Positions 3,235-26,130 of a stretch of DNA of 64,000 nt are shown here, in pieces (positions within the stretch are counted from its first letter, which is position 1; each line of letters opens with the position of its first letter). The notes under the pieces were generated by a model that saw only the letters and a program-made list of their open reading frames with translations, had not been told where the DNA came from and did not search any database. The DNA lies in the NCBI GenBank assembly GCA_964106915.2, contig OZ066923.1; one strand, written 5' to 3'. This DNA comes from Podarcis gaigeae (lineage: Eukaryota). The position numbers and the translations under genes were made by a program.

Positions 3235-3333
3235 ATGAGGAAAAAGGAGCGTTCTCGGACCTGCCCCAAAAAAGTGATCATGCTCTCTTCTTCCTCCATT
3301 TGCACTTCCTCTCCATCGTACCCCAGTCAGCAG
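3235..3333 (+). CDS. MICAL3: MICAL3 cassette exon, 99 nt, phase 0/0 (MRKKERSRTCPKKVIMLSSSSICTSSPSYPSQQ)
   Basis: Pyrimidine tract then aaag| acceptor; CAG|gtgatt donor; open frame. Resembles the recalled human MICAL3 alternative segment REREECSRTCPRRVITLS...QQ. Confidence 0.8.
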
Positions 3334-6012: not shown

Positions 6013-6069
6013 GCAAACAGGGAACTTCATGGAGAACCAGCTGGAGAGCAGAGTCCCAGACAGCAGCGG
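6013..6069 (+). CDS. MICAL3: MICAL3 cassette exon, 57 nt, phase 0/0 (ANRELHGEPAGEQSPRQQR)
   Basis: ttttgcctgcag| acceptor; weak CGG|gtaaaa donor. Resembles recalled human TYRDLDADNRGKQSPHHER and sits in the expected order. Confidence 0.65.
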
Positions 6070-7300: not shown

Positions 7301-7555
7301 GAGAGCCAGTGTGGTGTAGTGGTTAAGAGCGGTAGTCTCGTTATCTGGGGAACCGGGTTCGCGTCTCCGCTCCTCCACATGCAGCTGCTGGGTGACCTTG
7401 GGCCAGTCACACTTCTCTGAAGTCTCTCAGCCCCACTCACCTCACAGAGTGTTTGTTGTGGGGGAGGAAGGGAAAGGAGAATGTTAGCCGCTTTGAGACT
7501 CCAGAAAGGGAATGAAAGGCGGGATATCAAATCCAAACTCTTCTTCTTCTTCTTC
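7301..7555 (+). mobile_element. tRNA-derived SINE (Squam3-like), full length, (CTT)n tail
   Basis: A-box tggtgtagtgg, B-box-like gggttcgcgtctc, CTT tail; near-identical inverted copy at 37842-38099. Confidence 0.85.
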
Positions 7556-8108
7556 CCTGTGTCCATATTGCATCTGCCTGGCTTCCCTGCCTCTATTCAC
7601 TCCCTACCTCTCAGTAGTGTGCGTCACTACAGACAGCAAGTGCCCTTCTCCAGATCCCTGTGACACACCTGTATTTCACAGCAACTAAACTATGATGCTG
7701 CTTTGGCGGCACAATCTTGGCTCCTTTTCCTGCTGCTGTAGGATTCATAAACCACAGCTTCCAAAGGTCACAGCCCTCTGCATGCTTCCTGAGCAGTAAA
7801 CCTATTTAAATCAGTGACTTCCAGAGTAGACCTAATTTGGATTTGGCTACCGTAAATGGTTTGTGTTGTATGTATGTCACATCTGCGGTGTGTGTGTGTG
7901 TGTGTGCGCAACCTTCATCCAGAGGATTTTGAGCTCTTGTTCCCCTCCTTACCCCTGTGTCCCACTTTTTTTTTAATGCACAAGCATTTAATTAACTGCC
8001 TCTGACCTTATTTTCAGCTTTGTTTCTTTTCCTACTGCCATGCTTTTTCCATGAATATTTTTCCCCCTGTGCTCTCTTGTTCATTTTCCCTCACTCATTA
8101 TTCTGCAG

Positions 8109-8222
8109 AGACCTCACCAGTTCTTTTCAGATGACCGTGTGCCAGAGCGCACGCTTACCATTGAGCAGAGGGCAAGCCAGCTGGCTGCCCTCCTGGAGCA
8201 AAGGCCAGCAACCAGGCATCAG
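8109..8222 (+). CDS. MICAL3: MICAL3 cassette exon, 114 nt, phase 0/0 (RPHQFFSDDRVPERTLTIEQRASQLAALLEQRPATRHQ)
   Basis: About 89-nt AG-free pyrimidine tract then ctgcag|; CAG|gtgact donor; GC-rich open frame with the same phase as its neighbours. Confidence 0.75.
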
Positions 8223-9486
8223 GTGACTGCCTTCCTGTCTGTCTGGCACTTTGTGTCTGCTTGCCGTTCCGTAGAATGGGAAATGAAAGGTTGCTTGGGC
8301 TGTAACATGGCTGGCATCAGATGTCCTGTTTTAATGGCTGATGAGTACACTATCACATTGTAGCAGAACACTTTCAAGCACTCTAGGGTAAAACAACAAG
8401 ATCCAAACTTATTATTCCGTCTTTCCTGTTAACTTACTGTTCCTGCTTGCTGAATCAACACTTAATCTTGCATAGATGCGTCTAGCACTAATAAAAGATG
8501 TGTGGCATATGTGGGGAGGAAGCTCCTAACTTAAAGGGGCTTTTGAGAGTTTGCACTTCCATAGAGTAGGGTAGAATCTGTATAGAAAGACGCCGCTAGA
8601 TTCAATAAGTGTTGGTGGAGCATTGCTTAGCCAGTCTGGAGAAGAAGAGGGTCTGCGGTACGTAACTAGGTTTCAGAAGCAAGGTTCTATAAAATTAGCT
8701 TGCTGAAGAGTAACCCAAAACAAATGAAACCAGGAAGTTAACTAACCTCAGAACAGCCTTTATATATAAACCAAATGGGCTTTGAAAACTTGTTTATTTC
8801 TTTAAGCAATATACACATTCTTTCTATATGTGCCCTAATTTTTAAACATGTATGTCAGTGCCAATATTCAATCATATATCATCAGTTGCTCATCAGAATT
8901 TATTTTCTGACCCTGTGTGGGCTGTTATAATGTATTTCATCTCGTTAAACTCTGGAAGGTCTAATATCAATTGCTTTTATTCATTTTGCCATACAAAATA
9001 CAGATGGGGTAAAAAGAGACTATTGAATGCAAGCACATGCATTTTGACATGTGTCTTGCTTAACAGTCTTGCAGTCTCTTTTACCATGCAGAAATTTTAG
9101 AAAGTTGTTTCTTTTCGACCTTCTTACTAGGATTTTTTGGTATTGCTTCATGATTAGAATAGAATTCCTCGTATTTTATTCAGGATACATCTAGCCCACA
9201 GTTCTTTATAAATCCACTCATTTCTAAAACTTGAAAGACAAGCATCAGGAAGGTCATTCACAGCTGAAATTAGTACATGGATTTGCTGTTCCACCATTCC
9301 CTCCCCCCCAAATATCAATGTTCTGAACTTTGGCTGGGGAGTTTAAAAGTAGTAGAGCATGCCCACAGTTTTCCTACGTCACTTGCAAGCTACAAGATCT
9401 CTGCTGCCTGTCTCACCCGCCCCTTCCCAAAAGCTCCTATCTATTTTAAAATGCCGTCTTCTGACTTTCTCATCTTTATTTTGTAG

Positions 9487-9594
9487 CCAGAGATTGAGCG
9501 ATCTCGTCGATCTGTTGTTGAGCAGTGGGAGCTCTCCCGCAACCTCCGCTCTTCCAGTCGCCCTTCTTCTCCCTCCTCTGACTCCCTCAGACAG
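9487..9594 (+). CDS. MICAL3: MICAL3 cassette exon, 108 nt, phase 0/0 (PEIERSRRSVVEQWELSRNLRSSSRPSSPSSDSLRQ)
   Basis: ttttgtag| acceptor; CAG|gtagca donor. Matches recalled human PEPEPPRRFFVDQWELSLSLRSSARPASPSSDSLRQ. Confidence 0.88.
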
Positions 9595-11052
9595 GTAGCA
9601 TGGTGTGGGGCTTGAGGCTGCACCCGGTTGCACATCTTTGGCCTATTCCATCTCCTGCCACTTGAGAATGCCGCACTGGATAAAGCTAGGCTAATAAGTT
9701 CTCTTTGCCTTGGGTGTGGCTGAGCTTAGCCTGTGTGCCTGCAGAAAGGCTTGGGATTCCTCTCTATCCTGGTTATTCCAAGGCTTGTGAATTTGGAAAT
9801 GGGGCATATCCTTTACACCTCAGAGTTACTGATTGTCTGGTAGGAGAGAGAGCAAACATTTCACAAAGAATATTGTATGTCTCATCCAGAACTGGCTTGT
9901 TCTGCCTTCAGATAAGTAAAGGCATACCCTGGAATGCACTCACCCAGTTGGGAGGTGTGTTGGGTCCGAACCACCAAGCCATAGTTTGATCATCAGAAGT
10001 TCTTTGTGGGCTTAAATGCTTCTTCCTCTGCTTTCTCCTGCATCTTCCTTGGGCTTCTTCACTTCACTTTCATTTCCTCCGTAGCTATATCTTGGTTTTA
10101 TTATAATGTTTTGAACAGGTGCTGCCATAATCACTTCTCACTATAATTCGTTCTCAAGTTGGCAATTAAAGCCAAGTTCAGATTGTGGTTTGAGTCACTC
10201 AAATGAAAACAAAATTAGGCTAGCAGTAATTATGACCTGCTAGTTTAACCATGGCTTCCCAGTATATCTTTTGCTATGCGGGGAAGGGAAGTGGAATAAT
10301 GCAGACTGCTACTGACCACCAAACCATGGTGATGTTGGAACTGGACCATTGTGTCAAACGGCCATTTCTGACTACTAAGGATCCCCCAATAAGGCTTCAT
10401 TGTTGCCAAGAGTGGGATTCACTGTGTTGTCTGTCTCTTAACAGCTGTTTCTAGCACTGGATTTTCTGTGGCCATTGAACATCTACATGATGAATAAATG
10501 CTTGTTTGCTCCTTCGCTTTGAGGATGTGATTCAAACCACTATATTGCTTTGTGTGTCTTATAATATAACAGATTAGTTGTGGTTTGATTTTTGAACAGT
10601 GTAGTGAATACTGAAATGCTTGCTGCTTGCCTCATCTAGATTAAGGTTTAAGGGATTTCTGATTGTTCTATAGGAAGAGCTATACTGTATTGGTCATTGT
10701 GTCACTAAATGTTGTCTAATTCTTCAAGATGGGCATGGGGAATGTGGACACCTGTCTGTTGTAGAACTAATATTTCATTTTAAACAATGTAGTCTTGCTC
10801 TGAGAATTCTGTAGGGTTTTTATGGGAGAGGTGGATTAGATTCAAATCGATGTTAGGCAAATGTAGTAATCTTTAGTATGGGCAAGAAGCACCATCCTTT
10901 AGAGCAGATAGTCCCCTCTGTCTGCTTGTAGACCTTGAAGGCCTTCCCTTCAAAAGAAAACTTGTGGACGACAATAGACCTGTTTCTGACAAAGCAACCA
11001 CATTGCCTCTCATTTGGTTTCCCATATTGTCCCCTCTACTTGACCTAGGGTA

Positions 11053-11395
11053 AAAAGGTAAAGGTAAAGGTGCCCCTGCCCGTACGGGCCAGTCTTGACA
11101 GACTCTGGGGTTGTGCGCCCATCTCACTCAAGAGGCCAGGGGCCAGCGCTATCCGGAGACACTTCCGGGTCACGTGGCGAGCCAGAGCCGCACACGGAAA
11201 CGCCGTTTACCTTCCCGCTGGTAAGCGGTCCCTATTTATCTACTTGCACCCGGAGGTGCTTTCGAACTGCTAGGTTGGCAGGCGCTGGGACCGAGCAGCG
11301 GGAGCGCACCCCGCCGCAGGGATTCGAACCGCCGACCTTTCGATCGGCAAGTCCTAGGCGCTGAGGCTTTAACCCACAGCGCCACCTGTGTCCCC
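11053..11395 (-). mobile_element. Full-length Sauria SINE with 12-bp target-site duplication
   Basis: (AAAGGT)n reverse tail; tRNA-like head with B-box (ggattcgaacc on +); CpGs intact; TGACCTAGGGTA at 11041-11052 and 11396-11407. Confidence 0.92.
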
Positions 11396-11429
11396 TGACC
11401 TAGGGTAGAAATAGGCTAAAAATTCTCAC

Positions 11430-12530
11430 AATTGTTGGAAATAGGTCATGGAATCCCCCAAAGATCTGCATTGGGACAGTTTATGAGGAAGTCTGTATCT
11501 GAAGAGATTTGTTTTGCACACAGTCCACACACAAAAGAAAAAAATAGAAGAGGCTGTCTTAGAGACAATAAGACTGTGTAACTTGCCCACAAATGATCTG
11601 GAAGTGATCAGTGAAAGCCAACTTTGCAGATGGCACCAATTTATAGAGCATGATGAAAACCTGAGCAGACTATGAAGAGTTCCAAAAGAACATCTCCAAA
11701 TGAGGTGAAGGGGCAAAAAAACGTGCTAATAAGTGTAAAGTGATATATATTGGAACAAAACATTCCAATGCTGATTGAGTCTAAACTGGCTGAGACTGTC
11801 CAAGAATGACAACTTGGAGCTGCGGTGGAGAGCTCAGTGAAAACTTGGTGCAGCAGCTGCGGAAAGACAAATTCCAATATTGCAGAGATGGATAAGTGGT
11901 GCAGAAGAGGCACCAAAATACCAGTCAAGAAGTTGGGAGGGCATTCCAGGCAAGGCTTGTATGTTTGGGGCCTTTTAATTTAGAAAAGAAATACTAAAGG
12001 AGACACAGTATAGGGTTATAAGATGATTATATACTTTTCAATGTCTACATGGCATCAAAGTGGTTTACAAAACATTAAAACCAGTTGCACAACCTTGTTG
12101 AAATACAGAATAATGAAGAACGTACCATAATTGAAATACACAATAAATCCATCCCATTAAAATGTTAAAATAGAAACACGTGATTAAAATATGGAATAAA
12201 ACTATCACATTAAAACCCCACAGCAATTAAAACAGGAGACTTGGGTCAAGAGATGAAAAGAATGCCTGTATAAACAGGTGTGCCTTCAGAGGCTGGTAGA
12301 ATACCAATATAGATGTGGAATGCACTACCCCAACACCTGTGCCATCAATAATACATGATGCGGGGAAAATGTGGGAATGTTTTTCCCTCTCATAAAACTA
12401 GAACTCGCTTAATGAAATTGTCAGTAACAGATGAAATAAAGCGTTTTTTTCACACAATATGTAATAAACTTATGGAATTCACTTGTGTCATAAGATGTGG
12501 TGGTCAATGGCTCAAATTGCTTTTTTAATG
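11430..12530 (+). mobile_element. Decayed CR1 LINE RT/3' region, interrupted
   Basis: Degenerate FADDTKL...EELQKDL...KCKVMHIG-like sequence at about 11620-11760 with stops and frameshifts; boundaries approximate. Confidence 0.6.
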
Positions 12531-12731
12531 ACTTGTTCATTTTTTAATTAAATTTATATATCACACATCATACGAAGATCACAGGACAGTTTACAACATA
12601 AAAACACAAAATTCATGACACAATCATAATAAAAACAACAACAACACACACCACATTTAAAAGGCCATAGATTGTTTAACAGAAGGCCTGGTTGAAGAGA
12701 AATGTTTTTGCCTGGGTCTAAAAGCAGTCAT

Positions 12732-13061
12732 GGACGCGGGTGGCACTGTGGGTTAAACCACAGAGCCTAGGACTTGCTGATCAGAAGGTCGGTGGTTTGA
12801 ATCCCTGCGACGGGGTGAGCTCCTGCCCACCTAGCAGTTTGAAAGCACGTCAAAGTGCAAGTAGATAAATAGGTACCGCTCCGACGGGAACGTAAATGGC
12901 ATTTCTGTGCGCTGCTCTGGTTCGCCAGAAGTGGCTTAGTCATGCTGGCCACATGACCCGGAAGCTGTACGCCGGCTCCCTCGGCCAATAAAACGAGGTG
13001 AACGCCGCAACCCCAGAGTAGGCCACGACTGGACCTAATGGTCAGGGGTCCCTTTACCTTT
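12732..13061 (+). mobile_element. Full-length Sauria SINE with target-site duplication
   Basis: ggacgcgggtggcactgtgggttaaacc head, TTTACCTTT tail; flanks taaaagcagtcatg and taaaagaagtcatg (1 mismatch). Confidence 0.92.
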
Positions 13062-14647
13062 AAAAGAAGTCATGAGAATTTACACAGATTCATGGGGTTA
13101 TGGATCTTTCAAAATGTGTAGATCTATCAGCAAGTAGCTGCAATTTGAAATACCGTATCATTTGAGAGTCCTGTTGACTTCAGGCCCTCCACCTGACCAG
13201 TCTTCTGGACCCTCAGGTCTATTCTTCTAACAGAAAGGCCCATTAGTTGTTAATAATGTATCTACTTAGGTAAATAGAAGGACTTGCTGATTTTACTCTC
13301 TGTTCTTCAGTACAAAGTGCATTGGCTTATAATAAGCGGAATATCTGTTGTTTTTGAAAAGGGCAAGCTGTCAAAGGTTCTTGAGCTGAATTTGATATTC
13401 TGCTTCCTTGCTGAGAGGCCAGGCAACCCTCATCTATTTTCCTCTCCCCATAAACCTAAGGGAGAATTTGGGGGGGGGTGCAGTTATATGACTTGCTAGG
13501 TGGGACTGTGTGTGAAGAATCTCAGTATCTAAGGTTCTGTAAACTTAATGGCTTGTGCTCTCCCCCACCCCCCAATATATTTCTGAAACACAATCCTATC
13601 TAGTTATCATTTTGTGTTATACGGTTTGCTGCTTAAATAACAGTTGAAACTAATCATGTTGTTTTAATAAAAATAAGCAAAGGCAGCCATATTGGTCCAT
13701 AAGACACTCCCCTCGCAACTTCCATAGTAAGGAAATACCTTTTTAAGGCCAACCAAGATGTAACAAAATAATGAGCAAGCTTTTGGGTTCTCCAGCATTC
13801 TTCATAAGCTGGATGTAGGTGAGAAAAAGCCTTGGTTGGTGTTAAAACGACAGTGTCTGCACATTGGCCTCCAACCTGAGATGGGGTATGAAAAGAGATA
13901 GTGGGCTTAATATCCAACTGGGGAGATGGGGATGAAGAAACAGACAGTGGCTATGGACACTAGTATTTTTGCAGCCCTGCAAGAAAGAACATATATCTGA
14001 GCATGCAAATTTATTACACCCCTCTTTCCCTTTTAACTTCTCCTCCAGATACCCTTTCCCCAGACTATGTAATTCCTCAGTCTGATTTTGGATATCATAA
14101 ATAGCCATGATATCCCAATATGGGTAATCCATGCTACCTCATCCCTGAACCCATAGCACTCTTAGTCACCTATTGTTGGGGTTTCCGTTTGGGGGAGGGG
14201 GTCAACAACCAGCAGCTCATGGACTAGATCTGACCCTATGGCAGGACAATGTTCAGCTGCCAATCTAGAGATAAGCATGGTGTTTGGAAAGAACATGGCA
14301 GCTCTTATGGGAAACCTTTGTGGGAGATGGGGTTAGAAACACGTTTCATCTCCAACGACTCTCTGGCAAAAGAAAGTCTCTGACCCAGGGTCTTAGAGTG
14401 GCTGATTACAAACTGCTAATAATTTTATTTAGTGCTGCCCACACCAGTGGTTGCTGAGATCACTTGTTTTGCTGGTGCCACACACGCTTGTGTTGTCCAC
14501 TGTCTTGGCATGGTTTCACCCCTTTCTGCACCTTTTTTGCCATTTTTTTCTTTCATAGTTTTCATCCTGAATTTATACTGTTTCTCTTTCCCCTCATTTT
14601 CCCCATCCATCTTACCTCCCCCCACCCTCATTACCTTCATCTGGTAG

Positions 14648-14755
14648 AAGTATATAAAGATGTATACAGGTGGCGTGAGCTCATTGGCTGAGCAAATAGC
14701 CAATCAGCTTCAAAGGAAAGACCAACCCAAAACCCTTCTAGACAAGAAGGAACTG
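14648..14755 (+). CDS. MICAL3: MICAL3 cassette exon, 108 nt, phase 0/0 (KYIKMYTGGVSSLAEQIANQLQRKDQPKTLLDKKEL)
   Basis: tag|AAG tandem acceptor; CTG|gtaaga donor. Nearly identical to the recalled human alternative segment preceding GSMKKEF. Confidence 0.92.
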
Positions 14756-15487: not shown

Positions 15488-15674
15488 GGTTCCTTGAAAA
15501 AAGAATTCCCTCCGAATGTGGGAGGCAGTGATGTCTGCTACTTCTGCCACAAGCGTGTCTACGTGATGGAAAGGCTGAGTGCTGAAGGCAAATTCTTCCA
15601 CCGCAGCTGCTTCAAATGTGAATACTGTGCTACAACCCTGCGCTTGTCCTCTTATGCCTACGACCTGGTGGATG
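15488..15674 (+). CDS. MICAL3: MICAL3 LIM-domain exon 1 ([47 protein letters not shown]...DG)
   Basis: CxxC...HxxCxxCxxC LIM zinc ligands; ttag| acceptor and G|gtaagt donor; 187 nt, phase 0/1. Confidence 0.98.
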
Positions 15675-16087
15675 GTAAGTGAAATTTACCTTTTCCCTTA
15701 GGAGGGGATGGGCAAGAGCTTCAACTGATGGGTTGCAATCAGCAAAATTGTTGTGCAGGTGACTTCTACTTGCATAACATAACTTCCCCTTCTCCTCCTC
15801 CTTCCCCCCACTTGTGTCCCCATACCCAAATCTTCTCTGGGGGTTCCCACAGGCTTCTGGGACAGAGTTTCTTTTGGGGGGGGGGAATCAGGGAGTAGAA
15901 GGAGAGGGAGTTCCATTGTACAAGCTGAAGTCATTGAGATCACAACATAACTTTTATTGGATTCAGCACTTTGACTTAGAAATAACCTTCAGGATTCCAT
16001 ATATCTTTAGTATGGTCAGGAAATTATTACATCACTGTTTGGCCCACTTCAGATACATCACCCAAAATTATTATTGTACAAGAGGTA

Positions 16088-18464: not shown

Positions 18465-18552
18465 GACAGCAAAGGGATCCAGCAGGACAACATGGCGGCT
18501 GACGGTGCCGGACGTGCAAACTCCATCTCAACTTCGTCAGAGAGGACTCCAG
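18465..18552 (+). CDS. MICAL3: MICAL3 exon (DSKGIQQDNMAADGAGRANSISTSSERTP)
   Basis: Poly-C then cag| acceptor; CAG|gtagct donor; 88 nt, phase 0/1. Matches recalled EAKGPLQD...NGRANAVASSTERTP. Confidence 0.95.
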
Positions 18553-18794
18553 GTAGCTCTGCTTCCTTGTTTGGCAGGGTGATGCAGTACTCGCTCCACC
18601 TCTTTGACAGAGTTAGGGTGGCAAGCCAGCTCCTGCAAAACACAGTTTCCTCAGTTGGGCACCACGTAGCCCAAAATCCTTTGGACTCCTTTTTCATGTG
18701 CCAGCTGATGGCTTTTGGAGTCCCCTTTATCTATGTCCAGTCAGAGGTTCTTGTGCAGATAATGGGGGAGTTTTTATCAGCACTAGGATATTAA
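18553..18794 (+). CDS. MICAL3: Alternative terminal extension of the short MICAL3 isoform (GSSASLFGRV...NPLDSFFMCQLMAFGVPFIY...GEFLSALGY*)
   Basis: Frame stays open for about 80 codons past the donor to TAA at 18792-18794. Strongly resembles the recalled C-terminus of a human short isoform (VAQNPLDSFFMCQLLAFGVPFLY). Confidence 0.82.
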
Positions 18795-24706: not shown

Positions 24707-25930
24707 TTCCAAACAATCTTTCTGAGGTTTCAAAAGTTTCTGAGTTTTTCTTTTCTACTCCATTGTTTATCTCCTTTGATTCAAGCCTAAAGAGGTGGGG
24801 GATGAAGACTTCCTGGAGATGGAGTTTCTGCAGTTGGTCCATTAGATTGAAATTAAGTGTTGGCTAGTGCTAAGAAAAATATACTTTAGAGTAAGATTTG
24901 GCAGGACAAGGATTTGCTTAACATAATTCAGAGCTTGCATTTCCAGTTTATGGTTCTATAGTATGCATGGAGTCCCGAGGCAATAAGATGCCTTAAAGTA
25001 ATACATTGGTTCTTCTTAGAGGAAAAATGAGAACTTTGACCAGCAGCCAAAAATTTGTCCAGTGATTTCAAGTCAATATATAAAATTCAGCCTCTGTCCC
25101 TGTTCTCTTCGACTCCTTGCACCCTGCTTCCCAATATCACATGTCTTTAGGTCCCTTGCCTGCTGCCAACAACACATGTATTTCAAGGCCCAAGATTGAG
25201 AGGTTTTTTCCTACGGTAACTACAGTATCTCTCTCTTTCTGCTAAAGTGCATTGCTGCTAATATTCTCATTGTTGCTAACAACATCTTCTAAACAATCAG
25301 AATGTTTATGAACATCCTATTACCTCACAAGCTCAGCAAGTTTCTTACAGGAGAAGGTAGTGATAGCTGCTCATGCTCTAGCCCTCATACTGAGAAACAG
25401 AACCTAGTATGTAACTATACAGAAAGGGACAATCTTGATTCTAAATAAATGGAGCAAGGATAGCAAACGTGGTACAATCCAGATATTGTTGCACTACGAC
25501 TCGCAGTATTTTTGACCAATGGTCATGCTGGCTGGGGCTATTGGGGGTTAGAGTCTTAACAATATCAGGAAGACACTGTGTTGGCTAACCCTGAACTCCA
25601 TCAAAGGTGTGGAGCAGATTTAACCTCTTCCTCGGTGTTCCCTGAGTGAACCCCCTTAATTCTAAATAAGTATGTAAGAGCCATTCACTGCTATTGAGAG
25701 AAGTAAAGCACTGCACTAAGGGAGCCAAACTTGTCTTCCACTATTGATACCTAATGAGCTGTTCCTCTAAAACTGGGGTTTTTCATGCAAGCCAAGTGTG
25801 GATTTTTGCACAAAGTAACACAACAATGTTTGTGCATGCACATGTACACAAATACACAATCCTTCCAGTGCACAAGCCCCTCCCTTCCATACTACTAAAG
25901 AGCTGGAAACATGGAGGACAGGTTTAAGGG

Positions 25931-26130
25931 NNNNNNNNNNNNNNNNNNNNNNNNNNNNNNNNNNNNNNNNNNNNNNNNNNNNNNNNNNNNNNNNNNNNNN
26001 NNNNNNNNNNNNNNNNNNNNNNNNNNNNNNNNNNNNNNNNNNNNNNNNNNNNNNNNNNNNNNNNNNNNNNNNNNNNNNNNNNNNNNNNNNNNNNNNNNNN
26101 NNNNNNNNNNNNNNNNNNNNNNNNNNNNNN
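25931..26130. other. Assembly gap (200 N) with duplicated flanks
   Basis: 25702-25930 is repeated at 26131 to about 26354. Confidence 0.97.

Follow-up and report, generated by a model that had tools for sequence, protein, structure and literature searches.

How many copies of a short helix does a MICAL3 enzyme carry in the linker between its CH and LIM domains, and does exon choice set that number? The 64-kb window analyzed here (the whole stretch of Podarcis gaigeae DNA, on contig C21 of assembly G000) falls within MICAL3 (+ strand), and an earlier note on it had proposed that two of its cassette exons encode the same amphipathic helix, with splicing setting the number of copies. Studies of how MICALs are regulated focus on the catalytic, CH, LIM, and Rab-binding domains and treat the long linker of MICAL2 and MICAL3 as a spacer. 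In that linker we find three short predicted helices, M1 in a constitutive exon and M2 and M3 in cassette exons A and C, respectively; both paralogues have them, in fish as in tetrapods, and with two of them on cassette exons they offer a handle on what the splice forms do. We consider it likely that the three form one helix class whose copy number is spliced.

The linker exons were mapped by tblastn with snake and lizard proteins (Table 1). Both cassette exons are real, in frame, and in phase 0, and their translations, RPHQFFSDDRVPERTLTIEQRASQLAALLEQRPATRHQ for exon A and KYIKMYTGGVSSLAEQIANQLQRKDQPKTLLDKKEL for exon C, match the pattern first proposed for them, [VI]xxxAxQ[LI]AxxL[EQ]. M1, which reads NKVKSMATQLLAKFEE in the upstream constitutive exon, shares the register proposed for it but departs from the literal pattern, with Leu at position 9 and Phe at position 12 (positions counted from the Val/Ile, 1, to 13), and the Tyr first given for M1 turns out to be the mammalian residue, the lizard having Ser. 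The pattern common to M1, M2, and M3 is [VI]xxxAxx[LI]xxx[FLY], i.e., the register [VI]1-A5-[LI]8-[FLY]12. Six sets of motif windows (M1-M3 of MICAL3 and of MICAL2) yielded 103 distinct sequences, with V/I at position 1 in 101, Ala at position 5 in 100 and near-invariant in every set, L/I at position 8 in all 103, and F/L/Y at position 12 in 100, the windows having been chosen by regular expressions that require some of these residues, which tells against leaning on the counts. Position 7, where a conserved Gln had been claimed, is Gln in only 53/103; MICAL2 M2, several teleost M2 copies, and MICAL2 M3 have His, Arg, or Val there. The conservation expected of the hydrophobic and Ala positions was borne out independently of this way of picking windows: in a MAFFT alignment of 60 full proteins, the 34 distinct M2 rows had Ala5 conserved at 97% and Leu8 at 100%, and the 34 M3 rows had Ala5 at 97%. 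MAFFT, unaided, also placed all six peptides in one register.

When exon A was used for a protein search, it was present in 4 of 17 candidates, all squamates. A wider search with the snake linker gave 716 matches, and among the best 120, used for linker comparison, M2 was present in squamates, turtles, and birds, whereas M3 was nearly invariant from fish to mammals; M2 was degenerate in one crocodile and two bird models, and in teleosts it reads (I/V)QERAxxLxxxF. A profile built from the six peptides and run against 1.84 billion proteins returned 78 matches, 75 of them MICAL2/3-like by sequence and 3 repeat artefacts, with no invertebrate member apparent among the 78.

To gauge whether the likeness between the helices exceeds chance, we compared their profiles across the 1064 windows of snake MICAL3. 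The M1 profile ranked M2 and M3 second and third, the M3 profile ranked M2 and M1 second and third, and the M2 profile ranked M1 second and M3 sixth. Against shuffled exons, the M1-M2 match gave p 0.001-0.003 and pairs with M3 gave p 0.004-0.044; against synthetic amphipathic helices of the same hydrophobic pattern, the corresponding values were 0.005-0.010 and 0.017-0.071, the comparisons having been selected post hoc. With hhalign, all three motif pairs aligned in register, column shuffles reached the score in 1, 4, and 4 of 150 cases, and the probabilities were low (3-14%). The cross-match is thus significant for M1-M2, marginal for pairs with M3, and not significant for MICAL2 M3, which matched the M1 and M2 profiles at p 0.65 and 0.14.

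This last result is among those that would be explained if the three helices were separately conserved sites for different partners, alike mostly through a generic amphipathic pattern, so that splicing swapped functions and not copies. Each exon also has conserved flanks of its own (MYTGG before MICAL3 M3, TVGKV and DHRP around MICAL2 M3, and REF..K before MICAL2 M2), and whole-exon alignments of M1, M2, and M3 are weak and fall in other registers (p 0.028, 0.034, and 0.096). HEAT repeats match the motif profile as well: in a HEAT-repeat protein, one of the three false profile matches, 2-16 of 567 windows reached the MICAL3 cross-scores, and one alpha-actinin rod window scored 11.5 vs 12.3 for M1 on the M2 profile. 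By these scores, much of the pattern is generic. Nevertheless, none of 886 alpha-actinin windows reached the MICAL3 M1-to-M2 or M2-to-M1 scores, M1-M2 beats the null that preserves the hydrophobic pattern, Ala5 is near-invariant in all six sets, and some MICAL2-like M3 copies among the unnamed profile matches read I..KAxxLAILY, near M2. We regard separate partners as somewhat unlikely. Judged by sequence, M1 and M2 represent one kind of helix, to which M3 probably belongs too, as a marginal member with less support.

The same arrangement recurs in MICAL2 of the same genome, one exon of which is 100% identical to Podarcis proteins and so marks the animal as a lacertid lizard. Here the M1 exon has 150 nucleotides (nt), the M2 exon 102 nt (SIKEKASHLASMFG), and the M3 exon 108 nt (GIGAVAEVLVNLYM); their order and phase (0) are those of MICAL3, and the M3 exon is 108 nt long in both genes. 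The M2 sets of the two paralogues align with an hhalign probability of 91%, and the two M3 exons align gaplessly (p 0.0015). Since exons, order, and phase are shared, the set of three helices would predate the duplication that separated MICAL2 from MICAL3. In MICAL2, the cassette exon preceding M2 (L014, minus strand, upstream of L014:7424-7525) also ends in another conserved, helix-like stretch, ALSGVLQRLQHVEEK, for which no counterpart was seen in MICAL3.

How M1, M2, and M3 arose from one another is a separate matter, and here the old exon duplication suggested earlier is unproven. The three exons have the phase and neighbouring position of tandem duplicates, yet the spacer exons are also phase 0, and likeness beyond the core, which the off-register alignments above do not reveal for M1-M3, was seen only between two teleost M2+B units. 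In teleost mical3a, the M2 exon and the adjoining exon B form a tandem repeat of two units (0 of 2000 shuffles for each of four proteins, P0043, P0049, P0057, and P0065), and this duplication brings the protein to four helices. Common descent of M1-M3 through exon duplication is not shown by these comparisons.

All MICAL3 linker exons have ag/gt ends, are in phase 0, and have lengths that are multiples of three, so any subset of them could be joined in frame. We tallied helix content in the 108 of 124 MICAL3 proteins with both M1 and the start of LIM, assigning clades by a sequence rule. Sauropsid models (n = 57) comprised 23 with M1 only, 19 with M1 and M3, 1 with M1 and M2, and 14 with all three; teleost models (n = 15) comprised 1 with M1 only, 4 with M1 and M3, 2 with three helices, and 8 with four, including two M2 copies; mammalian models (n = 36) comprised 23 with M1 only and 13 with M1 and M3, M2 being found in 0/36. 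The range of one to three copies first proposed thus describes the sauropsid models, while the mammalian models have only one or two and those of teleost mical3a up to four. The absence of M2 from the mammalian models, along with its degeneracy in the crocodile and bird models, suggests lineage-specific decay of exon A. In MICAL2, M2 was present in 99 and absent from 18 of 117 models (117 of 120 proteins, all selected for M3).

These tallies count predicted gene models, about nine of the bird models reading through introns, and we therefore also compared the region 7500-9400 with contigs of a close relative, taken from 4 of its 12 RNA-like runs, the RNA label itself being a guess. In two runs from two studies (X1 and X5), one contig ends exactly at 8222, the donor of exon A, and another starts at 8193; the resulting 30-base overlap (8193-8222) is expected where an assembly graph forks at a donor. 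Run X5 has a further break, 8105/8134, on the acceptor side of exon A (1 of 4 runs), which would match splicing from an exon with GCAG at its end, such as the 99-nt spacer exon. Weighing against use of the exon, the contigs of runs X4 and X6 only run on through the donor, and all four runs cover the intron, with no splice joint listed. Together, the contigs hint weakly at low-level use of exon A. The exons are cassette-like and conserved, and the predicted models and this hint indicate that they are probably spliced; exon choice thus likely sets the number of similar helices per enzyme, and the copy-number idea holds in outline.

What might such helices bind? If they are indeed one class with a spliced copy number, we lean slightly toward filamentous actin (F-actin) as the partner. 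That MICAL3 and MICAL2 carry them, in spliced number, as weak F-actin anchors is our preferred explanation, held tentatively and at less than even confidence. One constitutive and two optional in-frame exons would each supply the linker with a similar 13-residue predicted amphipathic helix, which would fold upon binding and dock weakly in the hydrophobic cleft of F-actin. More copies would mean higher avidity, and the monooxygenase would stay longer on filaments and bundles, beside the methionines of the actin D-loop. Met44 and Met47, the residues of actin that MICAL oxidises, lie in this loop, and F-actin-binding motifs of the SFM class touch the D-loop of the neighbouring actin subunit. The helices would be dispensable for catalysis and act as modulators, because redox-CH fragments without the linker already bind and dismantle F-actin (PMC5772675), a point that also counts against a need for anchors.

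The SFM class (Lifeact/ITPKA, VxxLxxxFE) is the closest known comparison. SFMs are short helices in disordered regions, and the MICAL stretches are predicted as such, at low confidence (pLDDT under 50), in an otherwise coil linker. As in SFMs, they have Val/Ile at P1 and Leu/Met/Arg/Lys at P4 and often occur several per protein, and the first nine residues of each resemble the start of an SFM. Thus, the validated USP54 motif VRSLAEQFQ is identical to M3 at 6/9 residues, and CASKIN1 VKSIAAMLE to M1 at 5/9 (PMC13364712 Supplementary Table 3). In contrast to SFMs, the MICAL helices have their Phe-Glu end one turn later and a near-invariant Ala at position 5, and their copy number would be set by cassette exons, with one copy exon-duplicated; the SFM preprint reports no exon duplication.

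Several observations weigh against an SFM-type assignment. None of the helices combines the SFM residues at P1, P8, and P9: in one register, V/I at P1 and L/I at P8 are followed by L/A/V at P9, leaving no Phe8/Glu9, and in the other, F/L/Y at P8, often with E/Q at P9, comes with Ala at P1, which is found in none of the SFM list rows examined (PMC13364712). Nor is a MICAL protein among the rows listed in the final SFM list of the supplement, later rounds of which may hold more. A MICAL2 site at residue 719 passed the first screen of that study and docked on actin with an ipTM of 0.63; it was set aside in rejected cluster 2 (root-mean-square deviation 6.9 A), and unrelated helices score equally high in the same screen (PMC13364712). 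An extended account, in which the MICAL2/3 array consists of extended SFM-type F-actin anchors that were exon-duplicated before the gene split, were re-expanded in teleosts, and tune avidity and oxidation through one to four grips apart from Rab-controlled autoinhibition, seems to us unlikely.

The helices could instead dock within MICAL itself, on the monooxygenase (MO), CH, LIM, or bMERB domains, and tune autoinhibition. In MICAL1, autoinhibition involves an amphipathic helix from the corresponding linker, L2-alpha1 (PMC11557892), which resembles M1-M3 in class and general location. L2-alpha1 is single, however, and starts about 18 residues past the CH domain, whereas M1-M3 sit 100-300 residues beyond; in protein P0004, the helix that appears to match it spans 636-644, and M1 starts at 721. 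Many models with M1-M3 also stop before the bMERB domain. An AlphaFold2 model (60 sequences; mean pLDDT 44.6) of a snake isoform containing M1, M2, and M3 placed helices between residues 645 and 950 only at 720-734, 844-855, 898-905, and 911-920, i.e., at M1, M2, and exon C, at low confidence; pLDDT was below 50 at M1-M3, which speaks against docking, if weakly, the MO domain being poorly folded in this model. Docking within the enzyme is quite unlikely in our estimate. Many MICAL2 models (P0130, P0133, P0153, P0164, P0174, and others) are 1700-2000 residues long and do have a bMERB domain, in contrast with the statement in PMC11557892 that MICAL2 is without a coiled-coil domain.

Titin Z-repeats, the number of which also varies by splicing, suggest another model, with the MICAL helices as 1-4-5-8 ligands of alpha-actinin EF3-4, or of another calmodulin-like lobe, in an array that tethers MICAL to Z-discs or dense bodies. 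The six sets all fit A-x-x-[LI]-[LAVI]-x-x-[FLY], with 1-4-5-8 spacing at positions 5, 8, 9, and 12, and so share with EF3-4 ligands a hydrophobic spacing that opens with a small residue; titin Zr-7, palladin, myopalladin, and myotilin have this spacing in common with the neck motif of alpha-actinin (A266/I269/C270/L273) (PMC4259493; bioRxiv 2020.09.25.310029). The known ligands nonetheless score poorly or off register on the MICAL profile: the six-set profile ranked the neck 19th-68th of ~890 windows in five alpha-actinins, a myopalladin-like motif came 30th of 301 in the MICAL register, and titin Z-repeats scored 5.2 and 8.5 bits vs a helical background reaching 7.1. Moreover, as far as the available tables go, MICAL2 and MICAL3 are missing from two BioID data sets: the protein tables of actinin-BioID, despite the presence of their mRNAs (PMC8447243 supplements), and the tables of titin-BioID (PMC7305127 supplements). 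A predicted complex between M2 and an invertebrate alpha-actinin EF3-4, computed without alignments or controls, had a score of 0.18 and a mark of 0.34 and speaks neither for nor against binding. Exact look-ups of lizard actinin and actin pieces found 0/9, and two patterns for lizard palladin found none, both matching one exon that we take to be myopalladin-like. The alpha-actinin lead is weakened by the profile scores and the BioID tables, and we think it very unlikely.

WH2-type G-actin binders or myosin/IQ-type motifs, in line with the actin- or myosin-binding role guessed in the earlier note, are highly improbable and were dropped: the helices are amphipathic, a (L/I/V)RRQ stretch lies about ten residues past M1, and teleost M2 opens with IQ, but neither exon nor either of two full proteins had a Pfam WH2 or IQ match at E up to 10, no LKKT-like tail follows M2 or M3, and the teleost IQ copies are without the RG...R part that the IQ consensus includes. 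Family searches were otherwise blank, with no Pfam family on exon A and one sub-threshold match on exon C, nothing significant in a PDB sequence search with three exons (best E 0.4), and only chance-level scores (0.81) in the ESM Atlas with exon C.

Splicing of MICAL3 is itself well documented. The gene is heavily and tissue-specifically spliced (PMC12721327, bioRxiv 373704, PMC3896118), and known events include a 51-nt exon beside the coiled coil (PMC12721327) and PTBP2-dependent exons (PMC3896118). The events described in the available parts of these reports concern other or unnamed exons, with no linker motif (PMC12721327, PMC4465641, bioRxiv 373704, PMC3896118, PMC9982024), and no paper describing the linker helices was found in the open literature, subscription papers lying outside this coverage. 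The helix set is a real, old, and apparently undescribed feature of a well-studied gene pair. M1 and M3 occur in mammalian MICAL3, and all three helices in MICAL2 of marsupials, birds, reptiles, and frogs. If the anchoring of MICAL to F-actin is true, tissues would dial its filament avidity, and hence actin oxidation, via exon choice. This would be most relevant for short MICAL2 and MICAL3 forms without the autoinhibitory tail, which need another control.

Table 1. Exons and helices of the MICAL3 linker (positions in the window unless stated otherwise)
Feature	Length	Position	Strand	Remarks
Constitutive M1 exon	174 nt	3.0-3.2 kb upstream of window; G000 C21:17170807-17170980 = L002:6807-6980		tblastn
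Cassette exon	84 nt	L002:8481-8564, ~1.5 kb upstream of window		tblastn
Cassette exon, Ser/Pro-rich spacer	99 nt	3235..3333	+	3' end reads GCAG
Small cassette exon, spacer	57 nt	6013..6069	+	weak tblastn match (E 0.003) and ag/gt sites
Cassette exon A, encodes helix M2	114 nt	8109..8222	+	phase 0; flanks ctgcag / gtgact
Helix M2, IEQRASQLAALLE		8160..8198	+	
Cassette exon B	108 nt	9487..9594	+	copied along with M2 exon in teleost mical3a
Cassette exon C, encodes helix M3	108 nt	14648..14755	+	phase 0; flanks tggtag / gtaaga
Helix M3, VSSLAEQIANQLQ		14675..14713	+	
First LIM-domain exon		15488..15679, end approximate	+	downstream constitutive anchor of cassette array

An alternative acceptor within exon A, at 8130-8131 (ttcttttcag), was rejected: it would give a 92-nt, frame-shifting exon, and no contig break lies there. 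The sequence up to 300 nt from exons A, B, and C contains no RBFOX TGCATG site.

Farther downstream, in the long intron 3' of the exon that starts at 18465, lies a run of 200 N (window ~25930-26130). Read-through of that exon (18465-18794, +) turns it into an alternative last exon that encodes the hydrophobic tail PLDSFFMCQLMAFGVPFIYV, whose best 19-residue hydropathy is 1.5 and which is conserved in birds, turtles, and mammals and more loosely in fish. Such an exon would end MICAL3 ahead of the autoinhibitory bMERB domain, and the tail might anchor it in a membrane. For MICAL3, bioRxiv 373704 also mentions an alternative last exon. Elsewhere in the genome, three intronless actin-family genes are clustered at L022, L023, and L024 (G000 C19:6.35-6.40 Mb), one of which encodes a near-conventional actin of 376 residues.

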